Positions 2,307-60,153 of a DNA stretch of 64,000 nucleotides are shown here, one piece after another. Position 1 is the stretch's first letter. Every line of letters begins with the position of its first letter. A program made the position numbers and the translations under genes. Below the pieces are notes generated by a model. It did not search any database. It worked only from the letters and a program-made list of their open reading frames with translations, and had not been told where the DNA came from. This DNA is from a virus (lineage: Duplodnaviria > Heunggongvirae > Uroviricota > Caudoviricetes): the IMG/VR virus record IMGVR_UViG_3300028591_000092, positions 107,662-171,661 of that record; one strand, written 5' to 3'.

Positions 2307-2618
2307 CTTTCTTTTTCTTTTGTTTTGGTAATATAGAAATGCTGCCTCCTTTAAAAACAGAGGTAATTGAACTCAGTCCTAATAAAGAACATGCTGTAAT
2401 AATTAAAACCTATAATAATCCTTCAACACATTTGGAACCTCCTTCTGTTATTGTTAGATATATTATACATCCAAGTGCTACGAGCATGGCAATAGACCCA
2501 ACCAGTCTCTTGCTTGAGCCTATGCCATTCTCACTTAACATCTCTCTAAAAAATTCCTTTGAAGTTTTCATGTTTTTCTATCTTGAACTTCATCATTCTA
2601 CTTATTATTATCAAAAAG

Positions 2619-4778
2619 CTATGCCAGCTCAATTTGATTACGCTCTTTAACCAACTCAAGTTCTTTCTCTTTAGCCTCAGCCTTAGACTTAACATCATAC
2701 CACTTAATAGATTGCTCTGCAGTATTATTCTGTTGCTCGATAGCAAGTTTCTTCTCATTAAGTTGCTGAAGTTTCTTAGTATTAGCTTCAAGCTGTTGTT
2801 GCATTTTCTTGGCCTGATCTTGAGCCTGCTCTAATTGTTGAGTAAGTTGAGCAATTTGATTATTCTCAAGCTTCTTCTGCTTAATAGTCTTTCTAAGAGC
2901 TTCTTTCATTTCTGTCAAGCTCTTGCTTGTAGTAACATCAATAAGAATTTCAGGATCAACTTGATTGTTCTTAGCTAATTCAAGAGCCATTTGTTTAAGT
3001 AATTCCTGCTCTTTCATTATCTCTGTAGAATCAGCAAGATGTACATCATAATCAGTCTATGAATAGTATTCAGGCAAAGCTGTAAAGATTTCTTTTCTGT
3101 TGCCTAAAATTATTTGCCCTGTAAGACCTTTCTTATAAACTTTTCTTGCCAAATTTAATGCATCAGTAAGCATTTCTGCAACAAGAGTATCCATTACTTG
3201 ATAATATTGTTTAGTAATGATATAAGACTATTGCATTCCTGCTTCAACATTTGCCACAGCATCTCTCTGCTGAATACCGCCGAGTCTTTCTCTAAATACA
3301 CCAGTAATAGAGCTTGCTGTAGTTTCAACCATTTCAAGAGCTATTTGTACCGCCTATAAAGCACCGGGCTCAATCATGTCGTTATAACCATTAAATACTT
3401 GATTAATAACATCTCCTTCTTGAGAAGAATCAAATAAAGCCAAGCCAGATTTTCTATAAGCAAGATATTTCATAAGACGCTCTTCCATTTTATCTCCCAA
3501 CATTTCTGGAAGATGCGCTAAATCAACAATAGCACCTTTTGTACCGGAAAGAGCAATCATATTACTTTTAAAGTAATTTAAAAGATCAAAGTCGTCCTAT
3601 AATGAAGCTGTTTTTAGCATTAATGAATAAGGAGCGCCATGTCCATCGGTATAATACATTCCATTAATAGACAAAGTAACTTCATTAGGAGAATCCATGT
3701 CTCTAACAACATTATCGTCTTCGCCATCTAATATGTAAATATCAGATCCAATTCTAGTTACCTTATATCTTTGACCTTTTCTTTTCTTTCCGTCTTTGAT
3801 CCAATCAATCCATTCTACTTCGTAAACAGGAATTAAATCCCATTTACCATAGCGATTGTCGCTGTCAAACGTAACTCCAACACCATCAACAATACCAGGA
3901 TTGCTATAATCTCCATATCTAGCTCCACATGAAGTTATAAGAACATAATTTCTATTATCTTCATCATATACTTTAAGGTCGTCTAACTCATCAATATCTT
4001 TTTGAGTAAGATCATCTCCATATTTCATGATAATTTCTTCTTTAGTCATCCATTTTCTTACAACAGCTTTATATCCGTTTTTAAGATACTAGCTTTTAGG
4101 GTCTTTATCTACCCATGTATTTAAAGGATCTTCAATTTCAATTTGAAAATTCGTTCCAGCAGATGTTGGTATAACTTTATAATAAGCTTCTCCAGCGATT
4201 AATAGATCTAGTAAAATCTATTTTAATTTATTTTTAAAGTCAATTTTTCTTGATTGCAAAATATACTAAACTATGTTCTATCCAGCAATCTCGTAATTAG
4301 ATAGGAAGTTAATATCAACGGACTCCATTAAATCTTTAATCTCCTAATCTATAACAGGATCAATTGTTTTCTCTTCGCCAGGCTTTTTCCCAGCAAGAGC
4401 ATCATAGACGGCATTTGTGAGATATCTAGACACCCACTCTCTAATCTTAGAAGCTTTTTCAAGCTAGATATCCCTAAAAATGTTGGTTAGAGTTTTTTCA
4501 TCTTTACATGAAATCTTTGGTCTGATCTCTGTTGTTAAGAATTCACCAACAATTGCGTCTATGTGTTTTCTAATCAATGGAGTAAAGGAAATTGAAGTAG
4601 GATTTCCTATTCCATAATTTTTTTCAATATGTTCGTATTGATATTTATCTCTGATGGCATTATAATAATTATAAGCTTTAAACAGCCCTTCTTTTTCATG
4701 AACTAAATCGCCTATAACATAATCAGCCATCTCTACAAGATAATCGTCAGAACCTTTTTTACTTTTAGAAATTTCCAT
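2619..4778 (-). CDS. large structural protein, putative portal. One reading frame with at least 5 in-frame TAG codons; C-terminal coiled coil.
   Basis: ORFs 2619..3017, 3354..3560, 3597..4049 and 4464..4778 are all in the same frame. In-frame cta (TAG) at 3057, 3228, 3354, 3597 and 4089. Lies immediately downstream of terL in transcription order. Confidence 0.45.
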
Positions 4779-4786: not shown

Positions 4787-5065
4787 CTAATTTTCAGGAA
4801 ATGTTTCTATATTTCCGTATATTTTTAAGACAGCATGTTGTGATCTGTCAAGTCTTCTTTTCTTTAATTCAGTCTTTACAAAATCTAAAAATTCTTCATC
4901 TGACTCACATTGGTTAGCCATTACTAAACCGCCAAAATGCTCATCATGTAAATATAAAGTACATTTATACAAACCATCATTTTTTGTGACTTTTAAAGGT
5001 CTAGTATAAATGCAGCAATAAAGAGTTTCAATTAACTCTTTAACTTTTTTCTCTAAACCATCCAT
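4787..5065 (-). CDS. small hypothetical protein
   Basis: ORF track. Confidence 0.35.
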   Translation of the reverse strand: MDGLEKKVKELIETLYCCIYTRPLKVTKNDGLYKCTLYLHDEHFGGLVMANQCESDEEFLDFVKTELKKRRLDRSQHAVLKIYGNIETFPEN

Positions 5066-7361
5066 ATTTCATTGTAGATTGTTGAGGAACATTTTTTATT
5101 ATGCCAAAAACTTTCTGACCGTATTCATTTGTATAATACCCAACATTTTCTAATTTTCTGTCACCAGAATTATCTAATTTAGGAACTTTACCCTACATAT
5201 CTTCATTTGCCAAAAGGCAAATTCCAAAAGCAGCCACAATATCAAACTTTCGTTTGTTTTCAAATGAGTAACTTATTAACTGATCAATTACTTCTAAATA
5301 ATCAATTTGATCATAAAAGTCTTCAACATATTCCTATATTAATTCAATTTGGTGTTCTATAATTGATGTTACTGCAGGAACACCGTATTGTCTTTTATTC
5401 TATTTTGAGGTGGTCAATGTTACAGAAGGTCTTCTCATTAAATAGTATTGTTTCTGATACTAAATAAAATGATTTATTACCCCCACTCTAGTCGCCTCCA
5501 CCAAAGCTTTTGCATTATAGAACTAACATAATTTTAATGCTGTATCAAAAGCTTCTCTTACATCATTAGGTCTTTCTAAATATAAAGCAACTATTTTAGG
5601 CGCCTTCAATCCAACCTATCTTCGCATTACGACGATACAGAACTTAGAAACATCGTCTTGCCCAGTAGAAGTGTCTTTGCCCTAGTCAACAGCGTCTATT
5701 CCTATACAATATAAATTATTAAATGGAATACCTTTATCATCTGTCATTGGCAACTCTGTAATAAGAATCTTTCCTTGATCAGTAAATTCTGCTTTAGGCA
5801 TAGAATTTCTGTCAATTCCTCCTATATCCTTATTGTAATCCCAAGAAAGTCTAATTCTCTTAGGAGGCTCAACTGCTTTTAGTTGTTCTATATTTACTTG
5901 CTGTTCTGTAAGTTTTTCAGTATTAAATACATTATCTCCTTCAAGGATAAATGCATCTTCTGGAGTAAAACAGTACTCTGCCTTATCCTATAATAATTTT
6001 TTAGGGTCTTTTATTTTACTCCAAGTATTTTCATAATATGCCTTAGCTCTTTCTTCGTCTACTACTCCTCTTGAATCAAACCCAGGATTACCAGGGCTTC
6101 CAAACCACATAGTATAAGAAGGAATAAAATATCCAGTTAAAACAAATTCACCATTTCTAGTATAATTATGTTTATAAGGAAGCATAAAATACTCCTCTGG
6201 ATTATAAAACATGTCTTTGAGTGCAGCCAGTTTTGGTCCAGTATCTCCAGACGTTCCAAATACAAATCTAGAACCGACTCTAAATCCATTGATTTCAACT
6301 AAAGCGCGAGATTGAATATAAGACTGTGTTAATTTCTCATTACTACCAGCCTCTTCAAAATAAAGACTATATGTACGACCTCCACGTAATTTACGAGGAT
6401 CATCTATTGTAACGCCTTCTACTCTAGACTTCCATCCAACCTCGTTTTTATCTTTATCTACCTTAGAAGCAACCTTGACTCTAGAAGTATCCGTTTTCAT
6501 TCTTACCCTTCTAAAGCCACCTTGAGTTTGAGTATTAAGGAAGTCGAATTCATTCCACACTTTACTCAAAGTATCATCAACATATCTGTCAGCATAGGCC
6601 GCAACTATATTTCTTGTGTTTTTATGAAAAGTATATGCATCAGCAAGATTACTTGCAGCAATCTAAGAAGCTCCAACACCACGAGATTTAAAAGCTACAC
6701 CATCCATTCCAAGAGCTCGACATAAAGCAAGGTAATGAAAATACTCATACTATTTTGCTAAGAATGTGGGGAAGTTTTCCTCTTGTAACTCTGCACCGCT
6801 TTTATCTAATACAGAAGGAAGTCTAAAATAATTTAAGAAGAAATAATTTTCTCCCGTTAAAGTATATCTTCCAATTGTGACACCGTCTCTACATCTTCTA
6901 AATTCTTCCATCCAGTGTACTCTATGAGCAAATGTTCCAGGAAGCAAACTAGTATATTTTCCAGTCTATCTGTAAGTGTCAGCAGCTACTGTAAATACTT
7001 TAGGGTCAAAATCTAATCCTTCAGTTTTTGTTATAGGCCGATACCCAGTTAATTCATAAGATAAAGTCGGATCAAAATATAAAATAGGATCCCCCTTTTT
7101 TACATCCCAAGAATTGGGATCTTTTTTAACTTTTTTTGGCAATTCTTCTTGCTGAGGCTGTTCTTTATACTCAAGCATTTTCTTGACAAGTTCCTGGGTT
7201 TTTTCTTCTTTTGTTGGAGTTTTTCTCTCACGAAGCCTAATCGCTCTCTCTTTGTCAAGCTGTTTAGCTCTTTCTATAGCCTCTTCAGTAGTCATTTGTT
7301 GCCTTATCTTGCGTTCTTTAGCAGATTGTTTTGCTAGCTTTTCTAGCTCTTCTCTTGTCAT
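5040..7361 (-). CDS. terL: terminase large subunit (T4 gp17-like), translated through multiple in-frame TAG codons
   Basis: Same-frame ORFs 5988..6569, 6750..6947 and 6966..7361 joined by TAG at 5988 and 6966. HWMEEFRRCRDGVTIGRYT resembles the T4 gp17 VEEWKKCRDDIVYF region; LYFEEAG is Walker-B-like. Hand translation of ~5690-5760 gives IGIDAVD-Q-GKDTSTGQDD, a terminase nuclease-like motif. Frame-0 TAA at 5040. Confidence 0.6.
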
Positions 7362-7374: not shown

Positions 7375-7953
7375 TTAGTCAAATAGACCAGGTGTTGTAT
7401 CTCCTCTTAATCCAGAAGCTTCATCTTGCTCCTCTTTATATTGTGCCTCTAATTCTTTTAATGCTTGTAAGGCTTTTGAAAGATTTTGCATCTCTGTTAA
7501 AGTATCTTTAATTCTAAATACAGGCATTCCTGTATCTGTTCTTTCGTTGTAATCTATACTATCAATAAAGATTTGCATCTTATGAATATTATTAGTATAG
7601 GTTTCTACCATTTGGCCTATTACAGAAGAACTTTTCTATAGGTCTTGATACTTTTTGCATGCTGCTTTAAAGATCGGATCATTATACTCCTCATCAGTAA
7701 GTCTAGATGCTTCTAAAGCATATTTATGGCGATTGGCCGGAGTGTCCTTACTCCCAGGAGCGCCCCAGTCAATAGCCATATAAATATATATAAGTTCTCT
7801 AAAACCTCTTAATTTCTTTTTTCCTGTAGGATCTTCCTTACAGATATTTCTTTCATTAGTCCACAAGTCCGCAAATTCTTTTACCAAAAGAATTTCCGGT
7901 TCATTAATGATTATTTTATTTTCGGCACTATCATATGCGAAAAATTTAATCAT
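7375..7953 (-). CDS. hypothetical protein directly upstream of terL (possible small terminase subunit); one in-frame TAG at 7636
   Basis: ORFs 7375..7611 and 7636..7953 share a frame and are separated only by TAG. Assignment is by position relative to terL. Confidence 0.3.
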
Positions 7954-8222
7954 TATTTAAATATTTTTTGATAGTTTATTCTTCCACCAAGTTTTCTTAA
8001 TCCAACACTTTGATATGCCAAAGCAACATTAGAAGGATAATATTCTTTATCTTCTGTTTTAGCTACCCAATCAGGATCACCAACAAGTGCGCCAACTCTA
8101 TGTTGTCTAGATCCAATAAGTGCGTTACTCTAATAAGGGGCTTCTGTTGCATCATCAAAACTGTCTTGTTTAATTTGCCCTCTTTCTTTAGCTTCGTTTC
8201 TCTACGTCATTTGAAGTAATTG

Positions 8223-9032
8223 CTATTTAGGTAATGCTTGTGCAAAACTACCAGGAACGACAGATCTAGATAAAAGTTCTCTCGGTGCTTTGCGTTCTGC
8301 TTCTATAGCAGCATCATCAATACGTCTTTGCATCGCAAGTCTAGTTTGCCCTCCAAATTTACCATCTACAGCAAGGCCATTGTCCTTTTGGAATTGTTTA
8401 ATGGCGGCAATAGTATTTGCTCCCATCTTTCCATCAGCGCCAGTTCTGCCAACATTATATCCTAAATCAATTAATCGCTATTGAATCTGTTGAATATCAG
8501 TATCTTTAAACCCCTGTCTCTTATACCAATCTAATGGTCCTTCATACTGACCACTTCCACCAAAATACATATCAAGTCCAGCCTTACCAAGACCAAGAGT
8601 CATTTTTGCTTTAGCAACATTATCTTGAAATTCCTACTCATTTTTTTGCTGAATTCTAGTAGCCAAGTCAGGAGCAACTTCAGGAGAGCTGGGATCAAAA
8701 GTACCCGAAACAACTGGCGGGACTGTTCTACTTTTAACTGTATTTGAAAGCATCTCGTCCATGAGCTGGCGAGCCCCGGCAACAGATTCTCTTCTTGCTC
8801 TTTCTTGTGCTGATTTTTCAGCATCTCTTATAGCCCCAGAAGTAAAATTAACACTACCTCTTCCATATCCATCCCATGCTACTTGGTCTGCTTCTACTCC
8901 CCATCTTTTATACATAGGAAGCGCCTCCGCAGCTTCTTTTACTAGATACGCTCGTCTGTTGTCAAGAGGATCAAGAGCTACAGGCGTTAAATAGCCCATT
9001 TTTCTACTACGTTCACTAGAAAGTTCTCCCAT
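8223..9032 (-). CDS. virion-associated peptidoglycan-binding domain protein (PG_binding_1-like at the C-terminus)
   Basis: ORFs 8223..8426 and 8634..9032 share a frame. Motif AIKQFQKDNGLAVDGKFGGQTRLAMQR. Confidence 0.5.
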
Positions 9033-9599: not shown

Positions 9600-12180
9600 C
9601 TTTATATTTAGAAAGATCTACATTCTATTCCTATGTAGTATCCGGCACTAATTCCATAGACTCATTATACATCATTCTATTGCCTAGATTTGGGAAATAA
9701 ATGCTATTAAACAACTGCTTAGAAAGTTTTTCTTGTTCTGTATTTGTCATAATTAATCTTCTATTTTACTTAAGTCTTTCGTCGAAAATATCTCTTCCCT
9801 AAATATTCCCTATTTGTCCAAATACCTACAAACAATTCCTTGTAGGGTTTTCTACTTATTATCTCCATCTTTCAGAGTAAGTTCTTTCTTGCGAAGAACA
9901 TACATCTCTGGAGCATCTGCTAATTTGTTGTTCCGAACTTTATCGCCAGGAACAAAGTAACATTTATCTTCAAACATGTTCATTTTATTTAAAATATTTT
10001 GTGTAATTTAATTTTCCTCCCGATTTATATTGCCATTCCATATTTAAAAAATTTTCAGGAACGTTAATTTCATACCATAAGTTTCCTTTTCTATCTAAAA
10101 CGTTTTGCCTCACTGTTCCAGTTCCAAATAACTTTTCATATATTTTTGGGAAGTCAGCATACTTTTTAAGAATAGTTTTATGTGCTTCTGGATAGTCATA
10201 TATTTGTTGAGGAATAGAAGTCCTTTTTTTATTAAGTTCAACTATATCTGGTCGTAACTAAAATTCAGTATTATATATTTTATATTTCTAATCTGAATTC
10301 AAAGAAGGAGACGACAGTCTAGCTCGATTATTATCAATCCACTCATTACGAAGTTTATTATAATGATTGTCTATAATAGACATTTGAGAATCATAATTTG
10401 GATTAGATATATTTGCTTTTTTATAGCCCTCTATTTTTGCTGCTGTTTCTGACATTGGAAATCTAACTCGTTTTAATCCATTTTCAGAAGCATATTTTAA
10501 AATCTCATATATCTGTCGTTGTTGATAGTTTTCTCCCAAATGCTTTAATTCAGAAAAAGGCCTTTGTCCAACAGTCAGTTCATTCTCGAAAGATTTAAGT
10601 AGTTCAGCCTCATCTGACATTAACTCATTTAATCTTTTTACTTCATGTTCTTGCAACGTTCTTCCATCCTAGGCTTTTCCTTCGGCTATCGATTTTTTCC
10701 AAGCAGATAAGTTTTCTTTTATATCCTAAATGCGTGTATTAAGAAATTGTGCTCTCCTGTCTGTAAACTTTTCAAAAGGTTTCCATGTTTTTCTTTGTGC
10801 CCAATCACTTTGGTTTTCTAATATATGCAGAATATCAGGATCTTCTTTTGTAGTATAAGTTCTTACATGCCCCAATGTATTTGAATTAAAATGTGTATTA
10901 TTACCAACAGGAATTTGTCTGGAAGAAAGTGTGAATGTATGTAAATCCGGTGTTTCAGTATAAGAATTATACAAGTCTTCAAATTCTGTACCAAATTTTT
11001 TTCTTAGTTCTTTCATTGTAACTTGTTCTCCGACAACATTAGTAAATGGAGAATATTTACCGGAAATTCCATTAAAATTTCTAAAATTCTACTTCCACAT
11101 TAATTCCGGGTGAGCATTTAAAAATTTATCTGAAGCATCCCCTCCTTTTCCTCTTCCTTTAGTCTAAAACATTAGGCCGTTTATACCATAATCGTCCCAC
11201 ATGTCAGTCGGGGATTGTTCATATTTTACAAGATTTTCTTGAATTACTTTACGAAGATCTTTATAATTAATTTTGTCCTGACCTTCAAAATTTTTTATAA
11301 CTTTTCCAACAATATCTTGAGTCATTTTATCCTATTTTGCCAAATAGGAGTTTAACTATTTTATAGATATTGTTCCATCTTTTGATAACTGTTTTTCTAG
11401 TGGAGAACCTTCCATAAATCCTTTCAACTAATACCCAGGAAGCTCTGCATTGTTATAAGTTATTATTGGATAATTAGATTGTGGCTGTATTTGTGTTGAT
11501 TTATATACTTTAGGACTAAATAATTTAGAAAACTTTGTAGTCTTTCCAATCCTCGGCCCTCCAAGCCTCGGCCCTACTAACATACTAGCATCTAAAGCGT
11601 CTGAAACTAGCTCCTTTCCAAGCGTGCCATTATAAGCTTTTTGACCAAGTCTAGTAGTTGCGCTAGCCAAAAAACCTGACTATACTGCTGGATCAACAAA
11701 AGTTTTTGTAAAATTTAAAGCATTTCCAACTTTTGGAATATAACTTGCTGCCCCCTCTACCCATTTAGATGGAGTATAAAATCTTCCCATCCAATCAAGT
11801 CCGGTTTTAAGTCCATTAGTGGCTGCAGTTCCAACTCCAGCTTCTGCAGCCATAGGAGCTAATGTCCCTAAACTTACTGCAGCCAGCGGAATTCCTATTG
11901 CTCCAGCGGTTATTTTACTTAAATCAGATTCTTTAGATGCTTCTGTATGAGGGGCAAAATGTATATTTTTTGTTCCTTCATCATTAATATATTTTCTCTT
12001 AACTCCAGAAGTTACTACTATCTCAGGAAGTTCTCCGGCATCATATTGCAGATCTTGTGCAGTTCGTTCTATAGCAAAATTAGACGCGCTAGTCCCTTTG
12101 AATCCTAAAGATTCTGCTTTATTTAAATTTTCTTGATATTTATTTGAATTATACTAATCGTCTAATTTTACTTTTGCCAT
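9600..12180 (-). CDS. large TAG-interrupted structural protein gene(s). Same-frame fragments at 10288..10656, 10726..11016 and 11428..11670; ATG at 12178-12180.
   Basis: Three listed ORFs share a frame. Intervening stretches lack ORFs of 60 aa or more, consistent with multiple recoded TAGs. Confidence 0.3.
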
Positions 12181-12189: not shown

Positions 12190-12558
12190 TTATTTAAATC
12201 TTTCAGTTAATCCTTCTGCAATAACCGCCTTCACGGCCTGTTCATTTACCATCCAATAGCAATTACCCATAAAAGGTACTGGAGTAAGTTGAAGAATATT
12301 TACTAATACATCATCTCCAGCATGTACATATTGACAATCAGGAGCAACTTCAATTACTTTTGCACATTCAATAGTAAGTTTCTTTTCTTCTACTTGACCA
12401 CTATCTGAATTAATAAAATCAGAGTTTAAATCAAGACCGTCTTCAGTTTGTTTGTTAAGATACGGATTTTCATCATAAACATCTACAATAATATTTTTGT
12501 AGATCGGTTTTAATTCTAAAGCATTATTCATAATCATTAAACATTTAATATTGTACAA
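12190..12558 (-). CDS. groS: GroES-like co-chaperonin (longer than canonical); real start probably at the internal MIMNN
   Basis: LKPIYKNIIVDV and the C-terminal AVKAVIAEG resemble GroES; lies immediately downstream of the groEL-like gene. Confidence 0.5.
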   Translation of the reverse strand: MYNIKCLMIMNNALELKPIYKNIIVDVYDENPYLNKQTEDGLDLNSDFINSDSGQVEEKKLTIECAKVIEVAPDCQYVHAGDDVLVNILQLTPVPFMGNCYWMVNEQAVKAVIAEGLTERFK

Positions 12559-14027
12559 TTTGTTGTTAATATAGTTGATGCTACCGAAATAGCATTTTCA
12601 ATTGTTGCTTTTACAACTAGATAAGGATCTATAATTCCTTCTTCGTAATAATTTCCAAAAGGACAACTCCAAAAATCAAAAGTTTGAAAACAATCTTTTT
12701 CTGTATGGTCGAGGCCATACACAATAGTGTTGCACACAGGATCTTTACCAGTTATCATTTTATATGGAGCCCTTAAAACATTTTCTAGTTTCATTTCTAA
12801 TGGGAATTCTCCAATTACTTTTGACAACGCCACACCACCTCCTGGCAGCACTCCACCATCCATAGCACATTTAGTAGCCATAATGGCGTCTTCAAATCTA
12901 TCACATCTTTCCTTCATTTCTATTTTAGAAAAACCACCAACATAAATAGTTGCCATTCCAGATGTAAAGTTTGCTAAACGCTTCTGATGAAATACTTCTT
13001 CGATTTCTGATAAAATAGAGTCTTTAAGAACATCTCTTATAGATTGAATTCTTGCTTCTAATTTATCAGAAGGATGATACCCTATAAATGTGGTAGAATC
13101 TTTTGTAATAACTACTTTTTCGCATTCAGAAGATTCTCCAAATAAAATTCTCATATCTTCTAACATAGTTTCCCTCATAACACCAAAGTTAGGGCTTACT
13201 ACTTCACAAGACATAAGCTTTTTAGAACCATCAGGATTAAACATATTCTTTGCAAGGAATAATGTTAATCCAGATTCAAATTCAGGAGCAATGAGCAGAA
13301 GGCTTTTGTGTTCTCTATAAGCTTTTCCTGCTATAGCTTCCATTTCTTTTCCCTCATCTAGCTTTGTATCAGATATGTAAATAATACAATTCTCTAATAC
13401 ACATTCGTTTTTACTTGTGTTTATAAAGTAAGGAGATTCGTAACCATTATCTATCTTAAATCCTTCCGTATATTCCACCCTATCCTTCACGTCCTCAGAT
13501 TCTTGATATGTTACTAAACCATCTTTCCCTACTTTATAAAAAGCCTCAGCAATAAGACCTCCAATAGTTGGATCATTATTTGCTGCAAGTGTGGCTACTT
13601 TTTTAATATCCTCTAAAGAAGATATGTCTTTTTTATGTTGTTTTAAATACCCAATAATCTCTTCACCCGCTTTTTTTAAATATCTAGATACTTTAATAGG
13701 GTCTGGATTATCTTTATACTGATTTATAATTTCATTTGCTAATATTGCTACAGTTGTAGAACCATCACCAACAGTCTTAGCCTGTTTAATAGACGCTTCT
13801 TTAATAACATCAATACCCATTTGTATATAAGGATCTGGATCATTTACAGAATCCATTACTGTAGCACCGTCTTTTGTGGATTTTAATAGTCCACCTTTTC
13901 TTATCATAACACATGAAGCATTTGGTCCAAAAGTTGTTTCAACAGCTTTCGTTGCCAAATTAGCTCCCTCAATAATTTTAGATCTAGCTTCAGATCCAAA
14001 TTTTACATTATCATATTCCATAACCAT
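12537..14027 (-). CDS. groL: GroEL/Cpn60-like chaperonin
   Basis: VKFGSEARSKIIEGANLATKAVETTFGP and DGSTTVAILA match GroEL N-terminal and ATP-binding motifs. 496 aa. Confidence 0.9.
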   Translation of the reverse strand: MVMEYDNVKFGSEARSKIIEGANLATKAVETTFGPNASCVMIRKGGLLKSTKDGATVMDSVNDPDPYIQMGIDVIKEASIKQAKTVGDGSTTVAILANEIINQYKDNPDPIKVSRYLKKAGEEIIGYLKQHKKDISSLEDIKKVATLAANNDPTIGGLIAEAFYKVGKDGLVTYQESEDVKDRVEYTEGFKIDNGYESPYFINTSKNECVLENCIIYISDTKLDEGKEMEAIAGKAYREHKSLLLIAPEFESGLTLFLAKNMFNPDGSKKLMSCEVVSPNFGVMRETMLEDMRILFGESSECEKVVITKDSTTFIGYHPSDKLEARIQSIRDVLKDSILSEIEEVFHQKRLANFTSGMATIYVGGFSKIEMKERCDRFEDAIMATKCAMDGGVLPGGGVALSKVIGEFPLEMKLENVLRAPYKMITGKDPVCNTIVYGLDHTEKDCFQTFDFWSCPFGNYYEEGIIDPYLVVKATIENAISVASTILTTNCTILNV

Positions 14028-15260: not shown

Positions 15261-15354
15261 TTTCTTTTGAATTAGGCTTATAGCCGAATTTTAAATTCCA
15301 CATTAACATTAAACTAACAATAAGTTTCTTAAACCATTTAATCATATTACTCAA
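15130..15354 (-). CDS. small membrane protein
   Basis: ORF track; TM segment LIVSLMLMW. Confidence 0.35.
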   Translation of the reverse strand: MSNMIKWFKKLIVSLMLMWNLKFGYKPNSKENGTRKEIKLDKDPLESSSEFVDKCDTSTVTTTKVRRKSTRRKN

Positions 15355-15562
15355 AATTTAATGAGTTACATTTATCCATCTCTTCTTTAAGCTTTACTGC
15401 TTTAACATGCCATTTCAAAAGCTTTTCAATATCTGTTTTAATATATTCAACTTCAAATTCTTTTTTCTTTCTTAAATTTTCTACTTGAATGATTAAAAGC
15501 CTATCAATAATAAATTCAGGATTTAACTACTATAACATCCAAGCATATAAAGAAAGCTAAAA

Positions 15563-15823
15563 CTAGTAGTGTATACCAGGGCAATCTTCCCAGTCTACTA
15601 AAGGATATTTTAACCTTTTCGTCTTTTTCTTACCCACGTCATATATGCTTTTAAAAGCTATCTTCTCGTCGCTCTTAAAATCTATAATGGTAAGGTGATT
15701 ACCATCTCTGATAATACAATCCACAACACCAACTAACAAAAAGTCATCGTCTAGTGGTATTTCTACTTTAAACTCATTAAATATACCTTTATTTGATTTT
15801 AAAAATTCTTCAGTTCTCTGCAC
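15563..15823 (-). CDS. C-terminal part of a PD-(D/E)xK-type nuclease-like protein; reading frame probably extends upstream to ~16140 through TAG codons
   Basis: VGVVDCIIRDGNHLTIIDFKSDEK resembles the D...(D/E)xK core. Confidence 0.3.
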   Translation of the reverse strand: MQRTEEFLKSNKGIFNEFKVEIPLDDDFLLVGVVDCIIRDGNHLTIIDFKSDEKIAFKSIYDVGKKKTKRLKYPLVDWEDCPGIHY

Positions 15824-16337
15824 AGAATATTTTTCTGTATCAATTCCAAAATCTGTTTTTACAGAATGTAAATTAGTGCAAAAAAGATTATGAATCTGCT
15901 CATGAACTAATGTGCCTGTCTATTTTGCTTCCTCATTCTTTTCTGACCACTCTTTTTCTAATAAAGCTCTTTCTAAATTAAATTTATCAATATCTAAATT
16001 ATTAATCTAATCAAGAATAATCTTCTTACTCTTCAGAAGCTTCATTTTAATATCAGCAAAATAAACTTCTGGCAAAACTTTTTCTAAAGCTTTATAAGAT
16101 AACCAAAAATCTTTAGAAAACGTCTTATACTAATTTAGTAATCCAGTCACTCCAATTCTGTGCATACACATTATACATTTTAACATACAAAATTACAAAA
16201 AATAAATGAAAATAAAAACAAAAAAGCACAGAATCCTAAACAAAGATTCTATGCTTCTTTTATTAATATTACGTATGAAAAAACATTAATATTTTAAAAA
16301 TTAAAGTATTAAAGTGACAATAAAACTCCTAATACTA

Positions 16338-16778
16338 TTATTCCCAAACAGAGTATGTACTATTCTTGTATATAAGAAATTGCTTCCTCTGTTTTCCTTC
16401 TCTATTTTTAAATCCTATATGTAACCACTTTTTTACACCACTATATTCAACTATACATTGATCAAAATCTCTTGAATATAAAAAGTCTCTTGCAAACTCT
16501 TTAAATCTTTCGAAATCTCTGTCAACAGGCCATAAGTCAACCGCTTGTGCCGTGCAATGGCTAGAAGTGGCACTTCCGTGAACTGCCTTATTTAATTTTG
16601 GACCTCTATATCCAGAGTTAACTTTAATAGGTGTTCCCCACGCGCTTCTTAAAGGATCCAAAATCTGTTCTACGAATTCCTCCAACCCAGGCATTAAGTT
16701 GTCTGGGATGGAGTTATCTATTTTTAATCGCTCGGCTGTTTCTGATTTTTCAAATTCTTCTTTTGTAAAATATTCCAT
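16338..16778 (-). CDS. peptidase M15 (D-Ala-D-Ala carboxypeptidase/VanY-like) endolysin-type protein
   Basis: VNSGYRGPKLNKAVHGSATSSHCTAQAVDL motif. Confidence 0.75.
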   Translation of the reverse strand: MEYFTKEEFEKSETAERLKIDNSIPDNLMPGLEEFVEQILDPLRSAWGTPIKVNSGYRGPKLNKAVHGSATSSHCTAQAVDLWPVDRDFERFKEFARDFLYSRDFDQCIVEYSGVKKWLHIGFKNREGKQRKQFLIYKNSTYSVWE

Positions 16779-17082: not shown

Positions 17083-17409
17083 TCACCAAGATTTTTTTAA
17101 TTTGTTTAAATCTTCTTCTGTATATGCTTCTAATACAGTATTGAAGCTAACTCTATATTTATAAGGACACTCTCTTAAAGAATCTAATTGTTTTGGTTCT
17201 CTTTTTATTCCTTTTAAAGAGTCCTCTAAATCTCTAAGAGCTATAGCAATTTCTTGCATTCCGCTTATTGTTTCATCTATATAATGAAACTCAACATTAT
17301 CATTTTCCATTTCCCTGTGTCTATTAAAAAATTTTTTTGGACGTTCTACTTTAAAGAATTCCCCATTAAATTTTATTACACAAGGCACATTTTTATATTC
17401 TGTAACCAT
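17083..17409 (-). CDS. hypothetical protein
   Basis: ORF track. Confidence 0.4.
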   Translation of the reverse strand: MVTEYKNVPCVIKFNGEFFKVERPKKFFNRHREMENDNVEFHYIDETISGMQEIAIALRDLEDSLKGIKREPKQLDSLRECPYKYRVSFNTVLEAYTEEDLNKLKKSW

Positions 17410-17426
17410 ATTAAAAATATATTATT

Positions 17427-17504
17427 GGTTGCCCTCCAAGGATTCCAACCTTGCTCCCCTGATTTAGAGTCAGGTATAATCAATTGCAAATATACGAGAG
17501 GGCA
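17427..17504 (-). tRNA. amber suppressor tRNA (anticodon CTA, reads UAG); amino-acid identity not determinable by eye
   Basis: Reverse complement TGCCCTCTCGTATATTTGCAATTGATTATACCTGACTCTAAATCAGGGGAGCAAGGTTGGAATCCTTGGAGGGCAACC. 7-bp acceptor TGCCCTC/GAGGGCA; anticodon stem CCTGA/TCAGG with loop CTCTAAA (U33, CUA, A37); T-arm CAAGG-TTGGAAT-CCTTG. Confidence 0.7.
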
Positions 17505-17533
17505 GTACTAGCCTCATTTAAGAGGCTATATAA

Positions 17534-18253
17534 TTAAAGTAAAGTTAATCTTACAGTACCATTCTCATTAGAGAGAAAAATATGATCTTCATGCTGACAC
17601 AAATAATCAGCAACTTCCATATACTCATCATTAGTCATCTCAACAGCTTCTCCTTTCTTAAGCTTCTCAACCATATCTTTTACAACACCGTCTTTTACAG
17701 CATCAGTAATAATACCGCCAAGAATATCATCACTACAGTCTTGGTGCTCATTACGATTCTCTCTAAAAACTTTGAATAAATCTTTACGAATGTCTTCAGT
17801 TAATTTATTAAACCAGTCCTTTTCTCTTTTAGGAACGGCATCATAAAGGTCTTCCAAGAAGATTACAAAATCATCTATAGGATTAGATTTTTTAACGGGA
17901 GTTTCAGTTTGATGGCACTCTTCTTTATCTTTATAGGGATCACTGCATAATGTATTAGCATCAAGTCGATCAAGAATATCTTTTAACACAAAAGCAATTC
18001 CTTCTGGAGCTTTTTCAATACACTCTTCTAATACAGCCTCATCTTGAGTATAGAAAGCACTGATAATCTCTTTCAAAGCTTTTAACTCTTTGTAATCTTC
18101 TTCCGTAAAATTCAGATGATCTTCTCCAAACAAGAACTTCTCCCAGCCCTCATTCATAACTACGTCTTTTTCCTCTTTTGTAAGATCTCTCATAAGATCC
18201 TTTTCTAATAACTCAATTGTCTTGAGCCCTTCTTTCATTTGTTCAATTGTCAT
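17534..18253 (-). CDS. acidic hypothetical protein
   Basis: ORF track, 239 aa. Confidence 0.5.
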   Translation of the reverse strand: MTIEQMKEGLKTIELLEKDLMRDLTKEEKDVVMNEGWEKFLFGEDHLNFTEEDYKELKALKEIISAFYTQDEAVLEECIEKAPEGIAFVLKDILDRLDANTLCSDPYKDKEECHQTETPVKKSNPIDDFVIFLEDLYDAVPKREKDWFNKLTEDIRKDLFKVFRENRNEHQDCSDDILGGIITDAVKDGVVKDMVEKLKKGEAVEMTNDEYMEVADYLCQHEDHIFLSNENGTVRLTLL

Positions 18254-19089: not shown

Positions 19090-22000
19090 TTTAATTCTGG
19101 CAATTCTTCTTTATTTGACCCATACTTTTTAATAGCCCCATAAATAAATGCCAATGAATCATCTGTAATTCCATATCCCTATATTTTATAGAGATCATTA
19201 TATCTTGGTTCTACTGTTCCCATTTTAAAAATTTTTTCTAAGATTATATTCTTCTCTGTATTTTCTAGTTTTACGTAAAGGTATTACTAATAATAACAGC
19301 ATTATAATAAATTTTATCATTTGAAATAACTTAAATAATTTAATTTTCCGCCGTATTTCTTTTTCTTTTTAAACAAAGATGCTACATCTGAAAAGAACCC
19401 ATTATCTATTGTTTTTAATCCTTCTTTAATTTCTTGCCCAACACTTGGTTTTGGATAATATGTATCCATTGCTTCTTTCCAAGAAACCCCATCCACTCCT
19501 GCTGATTTAACGGTCTGATTCTTCAGATCATTAGCCCAAAAATTGATTTGACTATATGGTGATTTTACTAAAGTATGATGACCAGCATCTATGATACCTC
19601 TTTCATTCGGACGTATGATAACTTTATTATTATCAATTGGTATATAATCTCCACCTTCTCCAGCGCGTCCTGCCCTCTACGCAGGAACATTTGCTTTTCC
19701 AATATAAATATCTTCAATATTGGAATTACTTGCTGCGTTTAACATTGACTGTTCTCCAGACTTAAACTGTTTAGTAATCGAATAAACATCTCCGGAAGAA
19801 GTAGTTATAAACTAATTTGAATCTTGTGGATATTTCTATAAATATTCTTTTGCCGATTCTGGAGTCACTTTATTATAGTAATGAATTAACGTATCTCCAT
19901 ATTGCTATCCAGGCAGCTATTTATCTGAATAATATATAGACTTATCATGTATATATGGCAATTCTTTTTCTGTAACATTTTGTCTTATCTCTTCAGCTAA
20001 CTCCGGAGGCATTTCATACATATTTACACGAGGAGTTTTTTTATAACTGTAAAAAATTCCGGCATTATCACCAGCATATTCATTATTTAGCGGTTTTGTA
20101 TTTCCATTGGTTACTATTTTAATTGGAGATTTTTCATTAGTATTTTGTGTCTATTCCTGTTGAGATTGCTATTGCTGTCTCTATTGCTCTTTTTTCTATT
20201 GTGACACAGGAGGTTGCTGATACTAAATATTATTTTGTTGCGGCTGATAATGCTGCGCTAAATATTTCTAGATAGCTTCTGAACTTATTTCAGGAAATGT
20301 ATAATAAGTTTTTCCGTTTACAACTTTAGCTAAACCAATTGTCTATTGTGGGGTTAATGTTTTAATAATAGGTTTTGGTTTTGGCTAATATGGTCTAGAT
20401 GCTGCCTTCTAAACAGTCTAAGAATTAGAAGACTGAATATCAGTAGTTGTCTACTCAATAGGTTTCGTTGTTGACCGAACAACAAGTTCCTTTTTTACAA
20501 CAGGAGGTTCTGGTGGTTTTTCAACAAAATCTTTAGATCCATTATCAACCATCCATACACCAGCAATATCTTTTGGATTTACTCCTCTAAGCCCATACTG
20601 TATTTGTCCAGATTTTGTCTTAACCACATATGGATTTAACATGCTTCCCCTAGTCTACATTGCACCAGAAGCCCAGGGATTATATAATTTACCAGTGTTT
20701 TGCCAGTTCTATAATTCTTCATCAGATAATCTATATATTAAAGATGTATCTCCGTACTATCCCTAATATCCTGTGCCACCAAAGTCTCCGGAGGCAAGAC
20801 CCTCTGGGACAGAAATCCACGTACTACTTTTCTAGCTCATTCTCCAATATGTTTAGCTTCAATTAATATATACTCTTTTAAATCCTCTAGATTCTCCTTC
20901 TCAGATCCGTACTAAGCAATAGCACCATAAATAAACGCTAATGTATCATCCTGTATACATCCTACAATTGGGTGTAAATCTGTATACTTTGGTTCTACTG
21001 TTTCCATTATTTAAAAAATTTTAGATAATTTATCATTGGAGCTACCGAAACAGTTCTAAACCATGTATTATGCTATTTGTACATTTTCTCAGCTTCTTCT
21101 ATTGATTTAGGAATATCATATCCATATTTTTCAGCAAACTCTTTCGCATTCTATAAGATTTCAGATTTGTTATTTTCTATAAATCTCTCAGATCCTTTAG
21201 GAATTCCCAATCTTTCTGCTTCTGTTAATTTAGAAGTTGTAGGCTAAACAGGCCCGTTTTCAATTTGAGATACAAATCTATTGTCCAATTGTAAATTAGG
21301 ATTTTCTTTCAATAAAGCATTGTAGTAATCAGCCGCTTCAGCTTCTGTTCCTACACCTCTCCCAGTCTATCTTCTTATAAATACGTCTCTAGAAGGTATA
21401 CTAGGAGTATTATCGTAAACAAACTATATTTTACTCGGATTAGATAAAGCTTTATTAGAAATCATTAAAGTTTTACCTTCGTTTGCAGGATTTAATTTCC
21501 AATTAATAACCTCATCGTTAATTAGCTATACATAATCCGGATCTGATACAATTTTTAAATCCTTCGGAGAAACTCCTTTAGATTTAGCCAATTGTTCTAT
21601 TTTTGACCTTACCACATCATCAAAGTCGATTAAAGTAGAATTAGATGCTGTTGTTTTACCCATAGTTGGGCCATAGTATTTTACTTTGCCATATGTTCTA
21701 ACAGGACCGTTTGCAAACAGATCGAGATAATTTCTTTTTGCCGATTGCTATATACCTTTTTGTAACGCTCGCCTTCCAGTAGCGACACCCAGTCCGCCTA
21801 GCAATAATCCCGATACTAAATCCAAAGCCAAAGCTTTCCCTCCAGATAACTAATTATCAAGATTAAAAAGATTATAATAATATGAAGGCATACCTGCACC
21901 AAGTATAGCATTAAAAGCTCTTGCTGCATTTTCTTTCGCTTTCGCTTCTCCTTCTTTCTGTCTTTGTAATTCTTGAAGGTTATTTTTTATAGCAGCTTGT

Positions 22001-22150
22001 TGATTTTGGTAAGCATCTCCATTGTCTTTTATAATAACACCTGGCTAAGAGTTCTTCTTTTCTATTGCAAGAAGCTGTTCTACAGTCATTCTTTTCTGTC
22101 TAGCTTCAGCGGCTCTAGGATGTTCTATAGGTTCTATGTATTTTGACATG
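19090..22150 (-). other. coding-dense minus-strand region with no ORF of 60 aa or more except 20451..20642; interpreted as two or more TAG-rich (Gln-rich if TAG=Gln) structural genes
   Basis: Coding-like codon periodicity; frequent cta triplets on the plus strand; absence of long ORFs despite no obvious intergenic signals. Confidence 0.3.
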
Positions 22151-23777: not shown

Positions 23778-24299
23778 ATGACGTGCCGTTTTAATAATGT
23801 GGTATCGTGTATTAATTTGTCAACACAGATGGCTCTCGTGAGCCTGATTACTGATGGCTTTATGCTCACCACGAGGAAATATCATGGCTGGGTAATTGAG
23901 GGCCCAGATGGGCAGGTTGTTAAACTGTCAAAAGGTCTTAGCCTATGGGCAGACGTGTTTAGGACTTGGAAGCCAGAAGTGTTGAGAGATCGGATAAAGC
24001 TCCGTCTTCGCGGGGCCGAGACACAACTGTGGTTCAGGGGATCGGACCAAATTCCTACTGGCCTTCCAGAAGTGAAGGTAATTAAAAGTAGTCCAACCTG
24101 GCTACAGCATCTAGCAGGGGCAGACTGCTCACTGCCGGCCCCAAAAGAGGGGCAAAGAATAATCTTTGGCACCCTCATATATGAGAGGTGTCTTCTCGTC
24201 GGTGGGGACACCGACAGATGGAAACTTATCGAGTTTCCGTCAGAGACTTTAGCCCGCATATGTTGTGGGGAAGTTGATAACTCGACCGAGCGAGTATAA
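23778..24299 (+). CDS. hypothetical protein in GC-rich island (antisense ORFs 23882..24328 and 23453..23713 are probably artefacts)
   Basis: 173-aa ORF; ~50% GC against a ~30% background. Confidence 0.4.
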   Translation: MTCRFNNVVSCINLSTQMALVSLITDGFMLTTRKYHGWVIEGPDGQVVKLSKGLSLWADVFRTWKPEVLRDRIKLRLRGAETQLWFRGSDQIPTGLPEVKVIKSSPTWLQHLAGADCSLPAPKEGQRIIFGTLIYERCLLVGGDTDRWKLIEFPSETLARICCGEVDNSTERV

Positions 24300-24394
24300 A
24301 TAGACTTTAGGCTCGGTGCGTTGCCCAATCAGAAATGGTTGGGCAGGTAGTATTAACTAAAGTGCGTTAAGGAGCGCACGTTAAACAATAAAAA

Positions 24395-26306: not shown

Positions 26307-26915
26307 ATGAAATCTATTGACAAAACTACTAACTTAGTAGAAGCATCGTTCGAGAACGCTCAGCAGTATAAACTGGGCACGTGTGGACTTGGAACCGGTA
26401 GACGGTTCATCGTTCTTCCTGGCAAGCAGAAAGCCGAGTATTTCAAGGCTGGGACTAAGAATATTCCAGTCTTTAAGTATCGTGCTGCTATGCTCGGCAG
26501 AGACAATGAAATACTTTGCATAGATGCAGTCAACGTATCTGACATGATCCGTAACACATACGGCCAAGTCAAGTACGATGAAGAAGGTAACAGACTGCCT
26601 GCTCCTCAGATAGAGTTTGCTATCTCTACAAACGGCACAAGAGTTCCATCTACGTTTGGAGAGGAAGTTTCATGCGGCTGGGACGTGCGCAAACAGTTCG
26701 TCAAGAAGGAGGGCGATAAATCCTTATATGACGGAGTGATCGACTATCCTCAGGCTTTCGAGGTAGTTGGGCACGAGTTCCACTGGGTATCAGATTTCGA
26801 TCCTATTACATGGACTACCAAGCAGGATGAGAAAGGCTTCGTTGCCATGAGAATTAAGCTGATCCCAATCATCAAGAGAATCGATGTGCCTGAAGGAGTT
26901 AAGATACCTGAATAG
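26307..26915 (+). CDS. hypothetical protein (higher GC)
   Basis: ORF track. Confidence 0.55.
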   Translation: MKSIDKTTNLVEASFENAQQYKLGTCGLGTGRRFIVLPGKQKAEYFKAGTKNIPVFKYRAAMLGRDNEILCIDAVNVSDMIRNTYGQVKYDEEGNRLPAPQIEFAISTNGTRVPSTFGEEVSCGWDVRKQFVKKEGDKSLYDGVIDYPQAFEVVGHEFHWVSDFDPITWTTKQDEKGFVAMRIKLIPIIKRIDVPEGVKIPE

Positions 26916-27052
26916 TCACACTAATAGCCTGGAGTGTAATACACTTCAGGTTATTTTTTTTGGCGACTCAACAAGGTTTCTTATTTTAATTACGGGAGTT
27001 GAAGAAAAAATTTATTCCCAGAATATTATTGTTTAATTTTAAAAATATTATT

Positions 27053-29682: not shown

Positions 29683-30471
29683 ATGAAAGACATTTCTAAT
29701 ATGACCGTATATACAGAAGGTATGCGTAAAACTTTATTTGACAAATGTTATTTTGTTGATAAGGCAGATGCAAATATCTTTGTAGATTACGGTTGTGGAG
29801 ATGGATCATTGATTCGTCTTCTTAGTCAACTTTTTCCTGGTAATCTTTACATAGGATTTGATACTAATGTTCAGATGTTAGAACTGGCAAAGCAAGATAA
29901 AGAGGATAATGCTGTGTTTGTTGGAACTAAAGAAGAACTTATATCATTACTATTTGGGAAAACAGGTAAAAAGTGTCTTATACTTAACAGTGTGATACAT
30001 GAGATTCATTCTTATTGTACACCTGAAGAAATAGAAGAATTTTATTCTTTTATTTTCAGTGGTGTTTTTGACTATATCTGCATTCGTGATATGATGCCGT
30101 CTTACTCTATTAATCATATGAGTAATCCGTCATATGTAGATAAAGTAAAGCATGTTTTATCAACATGTCCTTTACCTTCTGCTATAACATATCTGAATGA
30201 TTTTGAAAGTATTTGGGGTTCTATTAATTTTAATAAGAACATGTATCATTTCTTTTTAAAATACAGATATACAGCAAATTGGAAGAGAGAGGTTGAAGAA
30301 AATTACTTTCCAATTTGTAAAGAAGAATTTAAAGAAACTATACCAAATACGTATGATATTATTTATTTAGAGGAATTTCTTCTTCCTTATTTAAAGAAAA
30401 TCATACAGGAAGATTTTGGTATTGTTTTGGATGAATGTACACACGTTAAGTTTGTATTAAAAAGAAAATAG
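29683..30471 (+). CDS. class I SAM-dependent methyltransferase
   Basis: Motif I VDYGCGDGS; 262 aa. Confidence 0.75.
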   Translation: MKDISNMTVYTEGMRKTLFDKCYFVDKADANIFVDYGCGDGSLIRLLSQLFPGNLYIGFDTNVQMLELAKQDKEDNAVFVGTKEELISLLFGKTGKKCLILNSVIHEIHSYCTPEEIEEFYSFIFSGVFDYICIRDMMPSYSINHMSNPSYVDKVKHVLSTCPLPSAITYLNDFESIWGSINFNKNMYHFFLKYRYTANWKREVEENYFPICKEEFKETIPNTYDIIYLEEFLLPYLKKIIQEDFGIVLDECTHVKFVLKRK

Positions 30472-30479
30472 GTATAATA

Positions 30480-46524: not shown

Positions 46525-46596
46525 ACAGTGATTAGCTCAATTGGTAGAGTACAAAATTTGGTTTTTGAAGTAGTAGGTTCGATTCCTACATTATTG
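46525..46596 (+). tRNA. tRNA with a 6-nt anticodon loop TTTGGT (anticodon ambiguous: TTG or TGG)
   Basis: Acceptor CAGTGAT/ATTATTG, D-arm GCTC-AATTGGTA-GAGT, anticodon stem CAAAA/TTTTG, T-arm GTAGG-TTCGATT-CCTAC. Confidence 0.45.
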
Positions 46597-46634
46597 TAAC
46601 AAAATTTTCTTTATTACTTTCTTTATGTCTTTAT

Positions 46635-59967: not shown

Positions 59968-60039
59968 TGCCTCTTGGTATAACGATTATTACGTCTGGTT
60001 TTGGTCCAGAAGATAGAGGTTTAACTCCTCTAGAGTCAA
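59968..60039 (+). tRNA. tRNA-Gln(TTG)-like, third copy with the same loop TTTTGGT
   Basis: Acceptor TGCCTCT/AGAGTCA (6/7), anticodon arm TCTGG-TTTTGGT-CCAGA, T-arm AGAGG-TTTAACT-CCTCT. Confidence 0.4.
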
Positions 60040-60045
60040 CAATTT

Positions 60046-60117: not shown

Positions 60118-60153
60118 CTAAAAAATTAATTAGTTATGTAGAAATTAAAGAAA

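Follow-up and report, generated by a model that had tools for sequence, protein, structure and literature searches.

The 64,000-nt stretch of viral DNA analyzed here (positions 107,662 to 171,661 of the IMG/VR record IMGVR_UViG_3300028591_000092, Caudoviricetes; hereafter the window) carries on its minus strand, at positions 17426-17504, a class I tRNA gene with the anticodon CUA. Judged from comparative sequence evidence, this tRNA is very probably a functional amber suppressor of a crAss-like phage of about 165 kb, which inserts glutamine at UAG and thereby would enable the synthesis of full-length portal, terminase, virion, and lysis-associated proteins. The locus illustrates the use of two genetic codes within the genome of a large gut phage, and the region is annotated correctly only when TAG is translated as Gln.

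Structure and conservation of the suppressor tRNA

The gene is defined by its sequence, by ARAGORN, by its Rfam alignment, and by covariation with an ortholog on the contig of a relative (L005). It consists of a 76-nt body (17429-17504) and an encoded CCA (17426-17428). Read along the minus strand, the acceptor stem TGCCCTC/GAGGGCA (17498-17504/17430-17436) is followed by U8 and C9 (TC, 17496-17497), by the D stem GUAU/UUAU (17492-17495/17476-17479 in the Rfam register) that encloses the 12-nt D loop AUUUGCAAUUGA (17480-17491, written ATTTGCAATTGA between GTAT and TTAT in the gene), and by A26 (17475). The anticodon stem CCTGA/TCAGG (17470-17474/17458-17462) closes the loop CTCTAAA (17463-17469), in which the anticodon CUA (17465-17467) reads UAG and is flanked by U33 and A37. 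A 4-nt variable loop, GGAG (17454-17457), leads to the T stem CAAGG/CCTTG (17449-17453/17437-17441) with the T loop UUGGAAU (17442-17448), and the discriminator is A73 (17429). Standard pairs are formed at all seven positions of the acceptor stem and at all five positions of both the anticodon and the T stem; the anticodon and T loops have the regular length of 7 nt. In the alignment that follows the Rfam register, the canonical U8, A14, A21, U33, A37, T54, T55, and A58 are all in place. The acceptor stem, anticodon stem, loop CTCTAAA, and T arm that a first-pass annotation had read from the letters are present on the minus strand as it listed them, and the CUA anticodon with U33 and A37 is confirmed both by the sequence and by ARAGORN.

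The two tRNA callers differ in how readily they accept the gene. ARAGORN reports a 79-nt tRNA with the anticodon cta at 17426-17504 on the minus strand, and its label "Pyl" reflects the anticodon only. A local search of 231 nt with the Rfam model RF00005 aligns the whole cloverleaf in register (E=0.005) at 24.0 bits, below the gathering score of 29. The check with tRNA callers that the first-pass annotation had proposed thus succeeds with ARAGORN, whereas the failure of covariance models, which it had named as a refutation, applies in part. The D stem as drawn by ARAGORN contains two mismatches and was dropped in favor of the Rfam register, GUAU/UUAU with A26. The single-sequence minimum free energy structure is not a cloverleaf (z=-1.74), which is common among tRNAs and uninformative. 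All other tRNA calls in the window (19 by ARAGORN, 21 by Rfam) lie on the plus strand, so that the earlier statement that this is the only minus-strand tRNA holds. A scan of the whole window for CUA, UCA, and UUA cloverleaves by structure only, with the sequences of the D and T loops ignored, gives no second credible suppressor, and no further stop-anticodon cloverleaf is found in the 5 kb to the left of the window. A relaxed ARAGORN run that permits introns gives no additional CUA anticodon in the window, and many of its calls are implausible.

Further evidence for the tRNA comes from its ortholog. Relatives were collected through their large terminase (TerL) on ENA/Logan contigs of 120-176 kb, which are designated by L-numbers. 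L005, whose TerL is 70% identical, shares the synteny of the M15 peptidase, PD-(D/E)XK nuclease, GroEL, and TerL genes and carries the tRNA in the equivalent gap (2095-2170). Thirteen of the 76 positions are different in the two tRNAs, and every one of them lies in a stem: four pairs of the anticodon stem and two of the T stem are changed on both sides (six compensated pairs), and one acceptor pair turns from U-A to U.G. No change falls into the loops, the variable loop included, or into the D arm. In the two-sequence alignment, 95% of the cells are paired, compared with 34-58% in slid registers, and this value is matched by 7 of 500 shuffles. When 13 substitutions are placed at random, pairing is kept in 0.3% of the trials, and all of them fall into stems in 0.015%. 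Because all 13 differences are located in stems and preserve pairing, this comparison, in which two sequences carry the argument, shows that the cloverleaf is under purifying selection and that it is the folded RNA that is selected. The loop CTCTAAA is unchanged in L005, L009, L011, and L012. The encoded CCA is present in the window tRNA and absent from the L005 ortholog. A MAFFT alignment of four class I suppressors placed gaps within the acceptor stem and was replaced with a structure-based segmentation.

Further copies were searched by sequence pattern and by protein. In the JGI metagenomes and IMG/VR, neither a 21-mer of the D arm nor a looser pattern of anticodon loop, GGAG, and T loop has any match; the first T-loop pattern matched a pair of tRNAs from a different group of phages and, by chance, two other sites. 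Searches of IMG/VR with the GroEL-like protein and the protein encoded upstream of the tRNA yielded nothing. The TerL relatives L015-L017 end just before the tRNA slot, and no tRNA lies 10 kb or less from TerL in L008, L010, and L013.

The low Rfam score is explained by two features, the 12-nt D loop without GG and the T loop TTGGAAT with G56. C56 is nearly universal in T loops. In the suppressor, the canonical G18-G19 and C56 are absent; the D loop has GC at the linear positions 18-19, and the T loop has G56. The suppressor appears to keep the elbow pair as C19-G56 in place of G19-C56, so that the odd loops are to be read as a compensated flip and not as decay; the placement of positions 18 and 19 within the 12-nt D loop is deduced. 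The flip is taken as real because nucleotide 56 covaries with the D-loop dinucleotide, both across the tRNAs of the window and in an unrelated tRNA. Among the 20 ARAGORN tRNAs of the window, 16 combine C56 with a D-loop GG (one is unparsed), and both tRNAs with U56, a tRNA-Gln at 59968-60040 and a tRNA-Gly(UCC) at 60046-60118, carry GA in the D loop. A tRNA-Gly(UCC) called only by Rfam (60782-60857) likewise pairs TTGGAAT with GC; all three tRNAs with a noncanonical, complementary 19:56 pair are on the plus strand. Outside the window, the D loop AAUGCUUA occurs together with TTGGAAT in an unrelated CUA tRNA of IMG/VR (L002/L003), whose canonical relatives have the D loop AAUGGUUA with TTCGAAT. 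Variation of the elbow pair looks like a trait of the tRNA set of this phage.

Recoding of the minus-strand block and the amino acid at UAG

The minus-strand block at 865-23000 comprises 25 tightly packed genes, 18 of which contain in-frame TAG codons (95 TAGs). TAG-carrying genes encode the portal (2568-4778, 12 TAGs) and TerL (5040-7361, 11 TAGs), as well as a peptidoglycan-binding protein (7953-9032, 5 TAGs) and a PD-(D/E)XK nuclease (15347-16186, 7 TAGs); others lie at 9985-12180 (11 TAGs), 19317-20840 (21 TAGs), and 21007-22149 (9 TAGs). A GroEL-like chaperonin (12537-14027) and an M15 peptidase (16338-16778) are TAG-free, and endolysin-like proteins are also encoded in the block. The portal, TerL, the endolysin-like and peptidoglycan-binding proteins, the nuclease, and the chaperonin are assigned by PHROGs. 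The Pfam labels of the block were taken from the identical contig L019 (ENA ERZ27256846 k141_3103349, 164,543 bp), from which the window differs by 3 mismatches in 17.4 kb.

In-frame TAG codons are frequent on the minus strand only. With TAG read through, open frames that span 100 codons or more add up to 28.2 kb in place of 14.6 kb on the minus strand, and the plus strand gains little (28.1 kb in place of 24.8 kb); with TGA read through, both strands gain about equally. The TerL genes of all nine sequenced relatives contain 9-20 in-frame TAGs each and no in-frame TGA or TAA, and a database copy of TerL (P0001) is full length only when TAG is read as Gln. The Gln found at every TAG of this copy stems from the translation table of the gene caller and was discarded as independent evidence. 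The earlier proposal that the tRNA supplies the decoding capacity of the TAG-containing genes gains support from these data, as a conserved CUA tRNA shares its strand with a block of genes whose frames are open only with TAG read-through.

The plus-strand block (23778-63994) keeps the standard code and holds all other tRNAs, about 20-24 in number. TAG serves as the stop in 6 of its 55 ORFs (open reading frames), and several TAG-ended genes have a back-up TAA 2-5 codons further on (26307-26924, 29683-30477, and 54084-54929), which suggests that these genes have to tolerate the suppressor once it is expressed.

The inserted amino acid can be read from codon-level alignments of TerL, the portal, and a 192-residue protein across ten genomes. 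At the 24 TAG columns of the window, Gln makes up 48% of the sense codons of the other genomes, followed by Glu and Lys with about 11-12% each; at its conserved TAG columns, Gln is found in 11 of 12 and Glu in one. Over the pooled TAG columns of all genomes, Gln reaches 29% against a background of 3.8%, and in the conserved portal columns TAG alternates with CAA and CAG only. There is no signal for Tyr, Ser, Trp, or Leu in the TAG columns. Glutamine, which had been guessed by precedent in the first-pass annotation, is thus borne out by the alignment.

The identity elements of the tRNA point in the same direction with some departures. Recognition of the tRNA by E. coli glutaminyl-tRNA synthetase (GlnRS) involves U35, the 10-25 pair, the discriminator, and the acceptor stem with its pairs 1-72 and 3-70; amber forms of tRNA-fMet, of tRNA-Trp, and of an acceptor-edited tRNA-Ser become Gln acceptors; and in the indirect pathway of Gln-tRNA formation, U1-A72 is a mark for GluRS2 (a glutamyl-tRNA synthetase) and the amidotransferase, being an antideterminant for Glu and a mark for Gln/Asn (PMC9976931). 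The suppressor has G10.U25, C34, U35, and A37, with A36 being forced in any amber suppressor, supE included. The U1-A72 and G2-C71 pairs of the suppressor also occur in E. coli glnV/glnU. Set against tRNA-Gln, a comparison that had been suggested earlier, it thus agrees at U1-A72, G2-C71, G10, U35, and A37 and differs from E. coli at C3-G70, A73, and A38.

The two tRNA-Gln(UUG) genes of the phage itself (45634-45706 and 59968-60040, both plus strand) have the same framework as the suppressor, namely U1-A72, G2-C71, U8, G10, a 4-nt variable loop, and A73, and they also lack G3-C70. Their D stem is GUAU/UUAC, compared with GUAU/UUAU in the suppressor. The gene at 59968, with its A19-U56 elbow, is the closest paralog of the suppressor in the window (61% identity). 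The class I suppressors of L007 and L009 show U1-A72, G2-C71, and A73, the acceptor stem of L007 equals that of E. coli tRNA-Gln, and all suppressors of the clade share U1, a weak 1:72 pair, and A73. No release factor, synthetase, or tRNA enzyme is found in a Pfam scan of 30 plus-strand ORFs or among the minus-strand proteins scanned. That a host enzyme attaches Gln to the suppressor is inferred with good support.

In the proposed mechanism, GlnRS of the host, or its GluRS together with the amidotransferase, probably attaches Gln to the tRNA, and the resulting Gln-tRNA(CUA) would compete with release factor 1 at UAG. Genes of the plus strand would be spared since they have no in-frame TAG, and those that end in TAG often have a back-up stop.

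Several points weigh against a working suppressor of this kind. The gene lies under the curated threshold of RF00005 and is missing from the list of hits above the gathering score for the window. Its D stem is weak (G.U, U-A, A-U, U.U). L005 is the single true ortholog that was found, and four pattern scans of the JGI metagenomes and IMG/VR yielded no further copy. The nucleotides C3-G70, A73, and A38 deviate from the E. coli GlnRS set of G3-C70, G73, and U38, a set that may not be that of the host. Lastly, the window plus 5 kb (69 kb) was inspected out of a genome of 164.5 kb, and a second suppressor, a synthetase, or a release factor may be encoded in the remaining ~100 kb. Part of these points would also fit a decaying, inactive tRNA-like remnant, with UAG being decoded by a suppressor in the other ~100 kb or by a host factor. 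The noncanonical D and T loops, the CCA that is encoded here and not in L005, and the suppressors at other sites in L007, L009, and L012 agree with such a remnant. It is nevertheless improbable, as the 13 of 13 pairing-preserving differences and the identical loops of the ortholog speak for selection on the folded RNA, the odd loops form a compensated tertiary pair that is seen in bona fide tRNAs of the same genome, and the window and the 5 kb to its left contain no other stop-anticodon cloverleaf.

A functional amber suppressor that inserts another amino acid (Glu, Lys, Tyr, Ser, Trp, or pyrrolysine) has a similarly slim chance. Glu and Lys come next after Gln at the TAG columns of the window, yet both are the usual neighbors of Gln at variable surface positions, and U1-A72 is a mark for Gln/Asn that acts as an antideterminant for Glu (PMC9976931). 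The departure of A73 and C3-G70 from the E. coli Gln set, and the class II, Ser/Tyr-like CUA tRNAs that occupy the equivalent slot in relatives, would fit a different amino acid; the conserved TAG columns with Gln in 11 of 12 and without a Tyr, Ser, Trp, or Leu signal do not. Pyrrolysine is favored by the ARAGORN label. In tRNA-Pyl, the D loop is very small, the variable loop measures 3 nt, the anticodon stem has 6 bp, and the T54-Psi55 motif is lacking. These hallmarks are absent from the suppressor with its 12-nt D loop, 5-bp anticodon stem, and 4-nt variable loop, and no Pyl genes such as PylRS or pylBCD occur among the ORFs scanned. Slightly less probable again is a mainly offensive role, in which read-through of host TAG stops harms host or defense proteins and the decoding of phage genes is secondary. 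This idea has been put forward for the many phages of the Zeta crAss-like group that have a CTA suppressor and no in-frame TAG (PMC7886860, PMC12386605). Here, the need is direct, because the portal, the terminase, and at least 16 other genes are unmakeable without UAG decoding; an anti-host effect may coexist and is not required to explain the gene. A Gln-inserting suppressor that serves the recoded block accounts best for the observations.

Locus, suppressor turnover, and genomic surroundings

The tRNA occupies a 124-nt gap that runs from the stop of the upstream gene (17534) through a hairpin and the tRNA to the start of the next gene (17409). The upstream neighbor (17534-18253, minus strand, 239 amino acids) and the downstream neighbor (17083-17409, minus strand, 108 amino acids, starting 17 nt past the CCA of the tRNA) contain no in-frame TAG. 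The hairpin AGCCTC-TTAAAT-GAGGCT (17510-17527, minus strand) stands between the upstream stop and the 5' end of the tRNA and has no T-run after it. In L005, the same hairpin precedes the tRNA and is followed by TTTTT, and in L011 and L014 the hairpin ahead of the tRNA has the compensated stem AGCTCC/GGAGCT. The first-pass annotation had placed the tRNA between late genes of the recoded strand. The strand is indeed that of the recoded block, "late" follows from the functions of the genes, and the three genes nearest to the tRNA are TAG-free. A scan of the locus for sigma-70 promoters gives fewer sites than shuffled sequences, with a model that does not cover Bacteroidetes or phage promoters, and a consensus scan of the locus, the hairpin at 17510-17527 included, gives no terminator. 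As the gap measures 124 nt and holds no promoter match better than chance, the tRNA is probably transcribed along with the minus-strand genes, from which it would be excised by host RNase P and 3' processing enzymes.

The slot of the tRNA is filled differently in other relatives. In L011 (TerL 68% identical), the hairpin is followed at this slot by a class II CUA tRNA (2235-2322), which has U1.G72, A73, a D arm of the Ser/Tyr-like type, and a variable arm that is long. Since it occupies the place of the class I suppressor of the window, the suppressor at this slot is replaced in situ. L012 has a class II CUA suppressor at another site (21724-21816), likewise with U1.G72, A73, a Ser/Tyr-like D arm, and a long variable arm, and L007 and L009 have canonical class I suppressors, also at another site. 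In L014, the closest relative (TerL 84% identical), a gene of the L011 type (640-964) is split between U35 and A36 by an ORF-less insert of 238 nt (673-910; 34% GC). The last base of the insert is G, a U stands directly ahead of it, and the exons, once joined, reproduce the L011 tRNA (2235-2321) exactly. The insert matches the Rfam family Intron_gpI weakly (17.6 bits, E=0.046), so that a group I intron can be taken as no more than a lead. With the gathering score of RF00005 as the cut-off, three of the suppressors in six relatives are detected (L007, L009, and L012, with 44-55 bits) and three are missed (L005, L011, and L014).

In L011 and L012, too, the TAG columns align with Gln, as they do in every genome compared. 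Either the class II bodies accept Gln, which is plausible by analogy given their weak first pair and the classic conversions of tRNA-Ser and tRNA-Tyr, or another suppressor is present elsewhere in these genomes. It is conceivable, if on balance doubtful, that the amber role in this clade is filled by interchangeable, unrelated tRNA bodies that all have U1, a weak 1:72 pair, A73, and CUA, that this minimal identity set captures the Gln-charging enzyme of the host, and that the divergent shapes explain part of the "missing suppressors." If true, nature would have repeated in this clade the classic conversion of amber tRNA-Ser and tRNA-Tyr to Gln acceptors, and the divergent shapes would account for part of the suppressors that go undetected, only about 40% of TAG-recoded phages having one.

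Other mobile or recoding-related features are found in the relatives. A number of genes, among them TerL, GroEL, and the portal, have inteins and homing endonucleases (LAGLIDADG, Hint, GIY-YIG, HNH) within or beside them (L007 1-2487; L010 4811-7237; L011 12242-13102; L012 952-3594; P0027, P0044, P0054, P0063, P0064, P0067, P0068, and others), and this load fits the intron- and intein-rich Zeta group. TerL and GroEL of the window itself are uninterrupted. The TAG-recoded relative L008 encodes in its late block (21418-21858) a protein of 146 amino acids with a match to Pfam Ribosomal_L11. L11 affects RF1-dependent termination at UAG, and a phage copy could bear on the efficiency of suppression; in the phage studied here, the equivalent stretch is located beyond the window.

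Both blocks of the window contain further elements. Four TAG-recoded minus-strand genes of the virion/lysis block (7953-9032, 9985-12180, 19317-20840, and 21007-22149) end in the C-terminal motif (G)G(K/R)(L/I)NYxx(Y/F/I)FK-stop, which also closes one protein of L005 (stop at 7473). No family match explains the motif, which could be a targeting or assembly tag. At the junction of the recoded and the standard block, just past the ORF 23778-24299, a full-length Pistol ribozyme (RF02679) is encoded at 24280-24352 on the plus strand (68.2 bits, gathering 34.5). The plus-strand block also encodes a radical SAM protein, a nucleoside 2-deoxyribosyltransferase, an SPFH/Band 7 protein, and two GNAT acetyltransferases (34008-34859, 50844-51287, 54084-54914, 57228-57656, and 59529-59882), one of the acetyltransferases being located inside the tRNA array. 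A protein of 563 amino acids (47582-49270, plus strand) matches the Ro60 vWA and TROVE domains with E-values of 4e-5 and 2e-3, under the Pfam cut-offs, and amid the tRNA-rich region it may be a Ro60/Rsr-like RNA quality-control protein. Two plus-strand tRNA-like elements are unusual. The element at 30972-31076 scores 39.3 bits with the Rfam tRNA model and has normal acceptor, D, and T arms, no ARAGORN call, and 44 nt in place of the 9-nt center of the anticodon arm; a tRNA with an intron and a tRNA mimic are both conceivable. The element at 46525-46598 is called "tRNA-???" by ARAGORN with the two-base anticodon "tg" (Gln|Pro), scores 51 bits with Rfam, and has an anticodon loop that is apparently one base short.

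Comparison with known recoding systems

The genome profile resembles that of the Zeta group of crAss-like phages (Crassvirales). Yutin et al. (2021) describe Zeta phages as genomes of 145-192 kb with many introns and inteins, TAG or TGA recoding of late genes, and suppressor tRNAs, and report that some recoded Zeta genomes have no detectable suppressor, perhaps due to too great a divergence (PMC7886860). A survey of the group lists amber-recoded genomes with CTA suppressors such as ctIv631 (162.9 kb, 32.7% GC, 21 tRNAs; PMC12386605), and the assignment of TAG to Gln in crAss-like phages is validated by metaproteomics (PMC9523058). The phage studied here resembles them in its size of 164.5 kb, its GC content of 32%, at least 20 tRNAs, a CUA suppressor, TAG decoded as Gln, and two opposed blocks with TAG recoding confined to the structural and packaging block. 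Its TerL and portal match crAss-type PHROGs and crAss-like phages at 26-41% identity, and one relative has the Pfam families Crass_capsid and CrAss_Ring_1. Judged from its size, its content, and the TerL relatives, the phage is a putative member of the Zeta group. Unlike the published tRNA genes, which form a block at the genome start, the suppressor stands alone in the recoded block and away from the tRNA array, and it differs further in its 12-nt D loop, C19-G56 elbow, and sub-threshold Rfam score.

The failure of detection is of wider relevance. TAG suppressors are found in only 40% of TAG-recoded phages, for which Borges et al. propose hijacking of the host GlnRS (bioRxiv 10.1101/2021.08.26.457843), and surveys suspect divergent tRNAs behind the majority of TAG-recoded phages that have no detectable suppressor (PMC7886860; bioRxiv 10.1101/2021.08.26.457843). 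The present tRNA is a concrete missed suppressor with a defined cause, the flip of the 19:56 elbow together with the long D loop, and could be used to retrain detectors. Its value lies in being an explained example that escapes threshold-based covariance scans, along with the turnover of suppressor types at one slot, and it is also a candidate for a natural, compact amber suppressor for Bacteroidales.

Other amber and opal systems share single features with the suppressor. E. coli supE (glnV44) is likewise a class I tRNA with U1-A72, G2-C71, G10, C34-U35-A36, and A37 that reads UAG as Gln against release factor 1. In contrast, supE differs by a point mutation from a cellular tRNA-Gln(CUG) and has G3-C70, G73, U38, a 5-nt variable loop, and G19-C56, whereas the phage tRNA has C3-G70, A73, A38, a 4-nt variable loop, and the flipped elbow, and is a dedicated gene that has evolved as such. 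With tRNA-Pyl, it shares only the CUA anticodon; the structural traits of tRNA-Pyl are lacking, and TAG aligns with Gln and not with Lys. The TGA "code-change module" of the Jade phages described by Borges et al. resembles the locus in having a suppressor beside lysis and late genes that is flanked by standard-code genes with recoded genes nearby, and differs in that no synthetase or release factor is found in the window. A suppressor tRNA that serves recoded late genes is a kind of element that is already described; what distinguishes the present one is its position, the flipped elbow combined with the long D loop, and a covariance score below the threshold.

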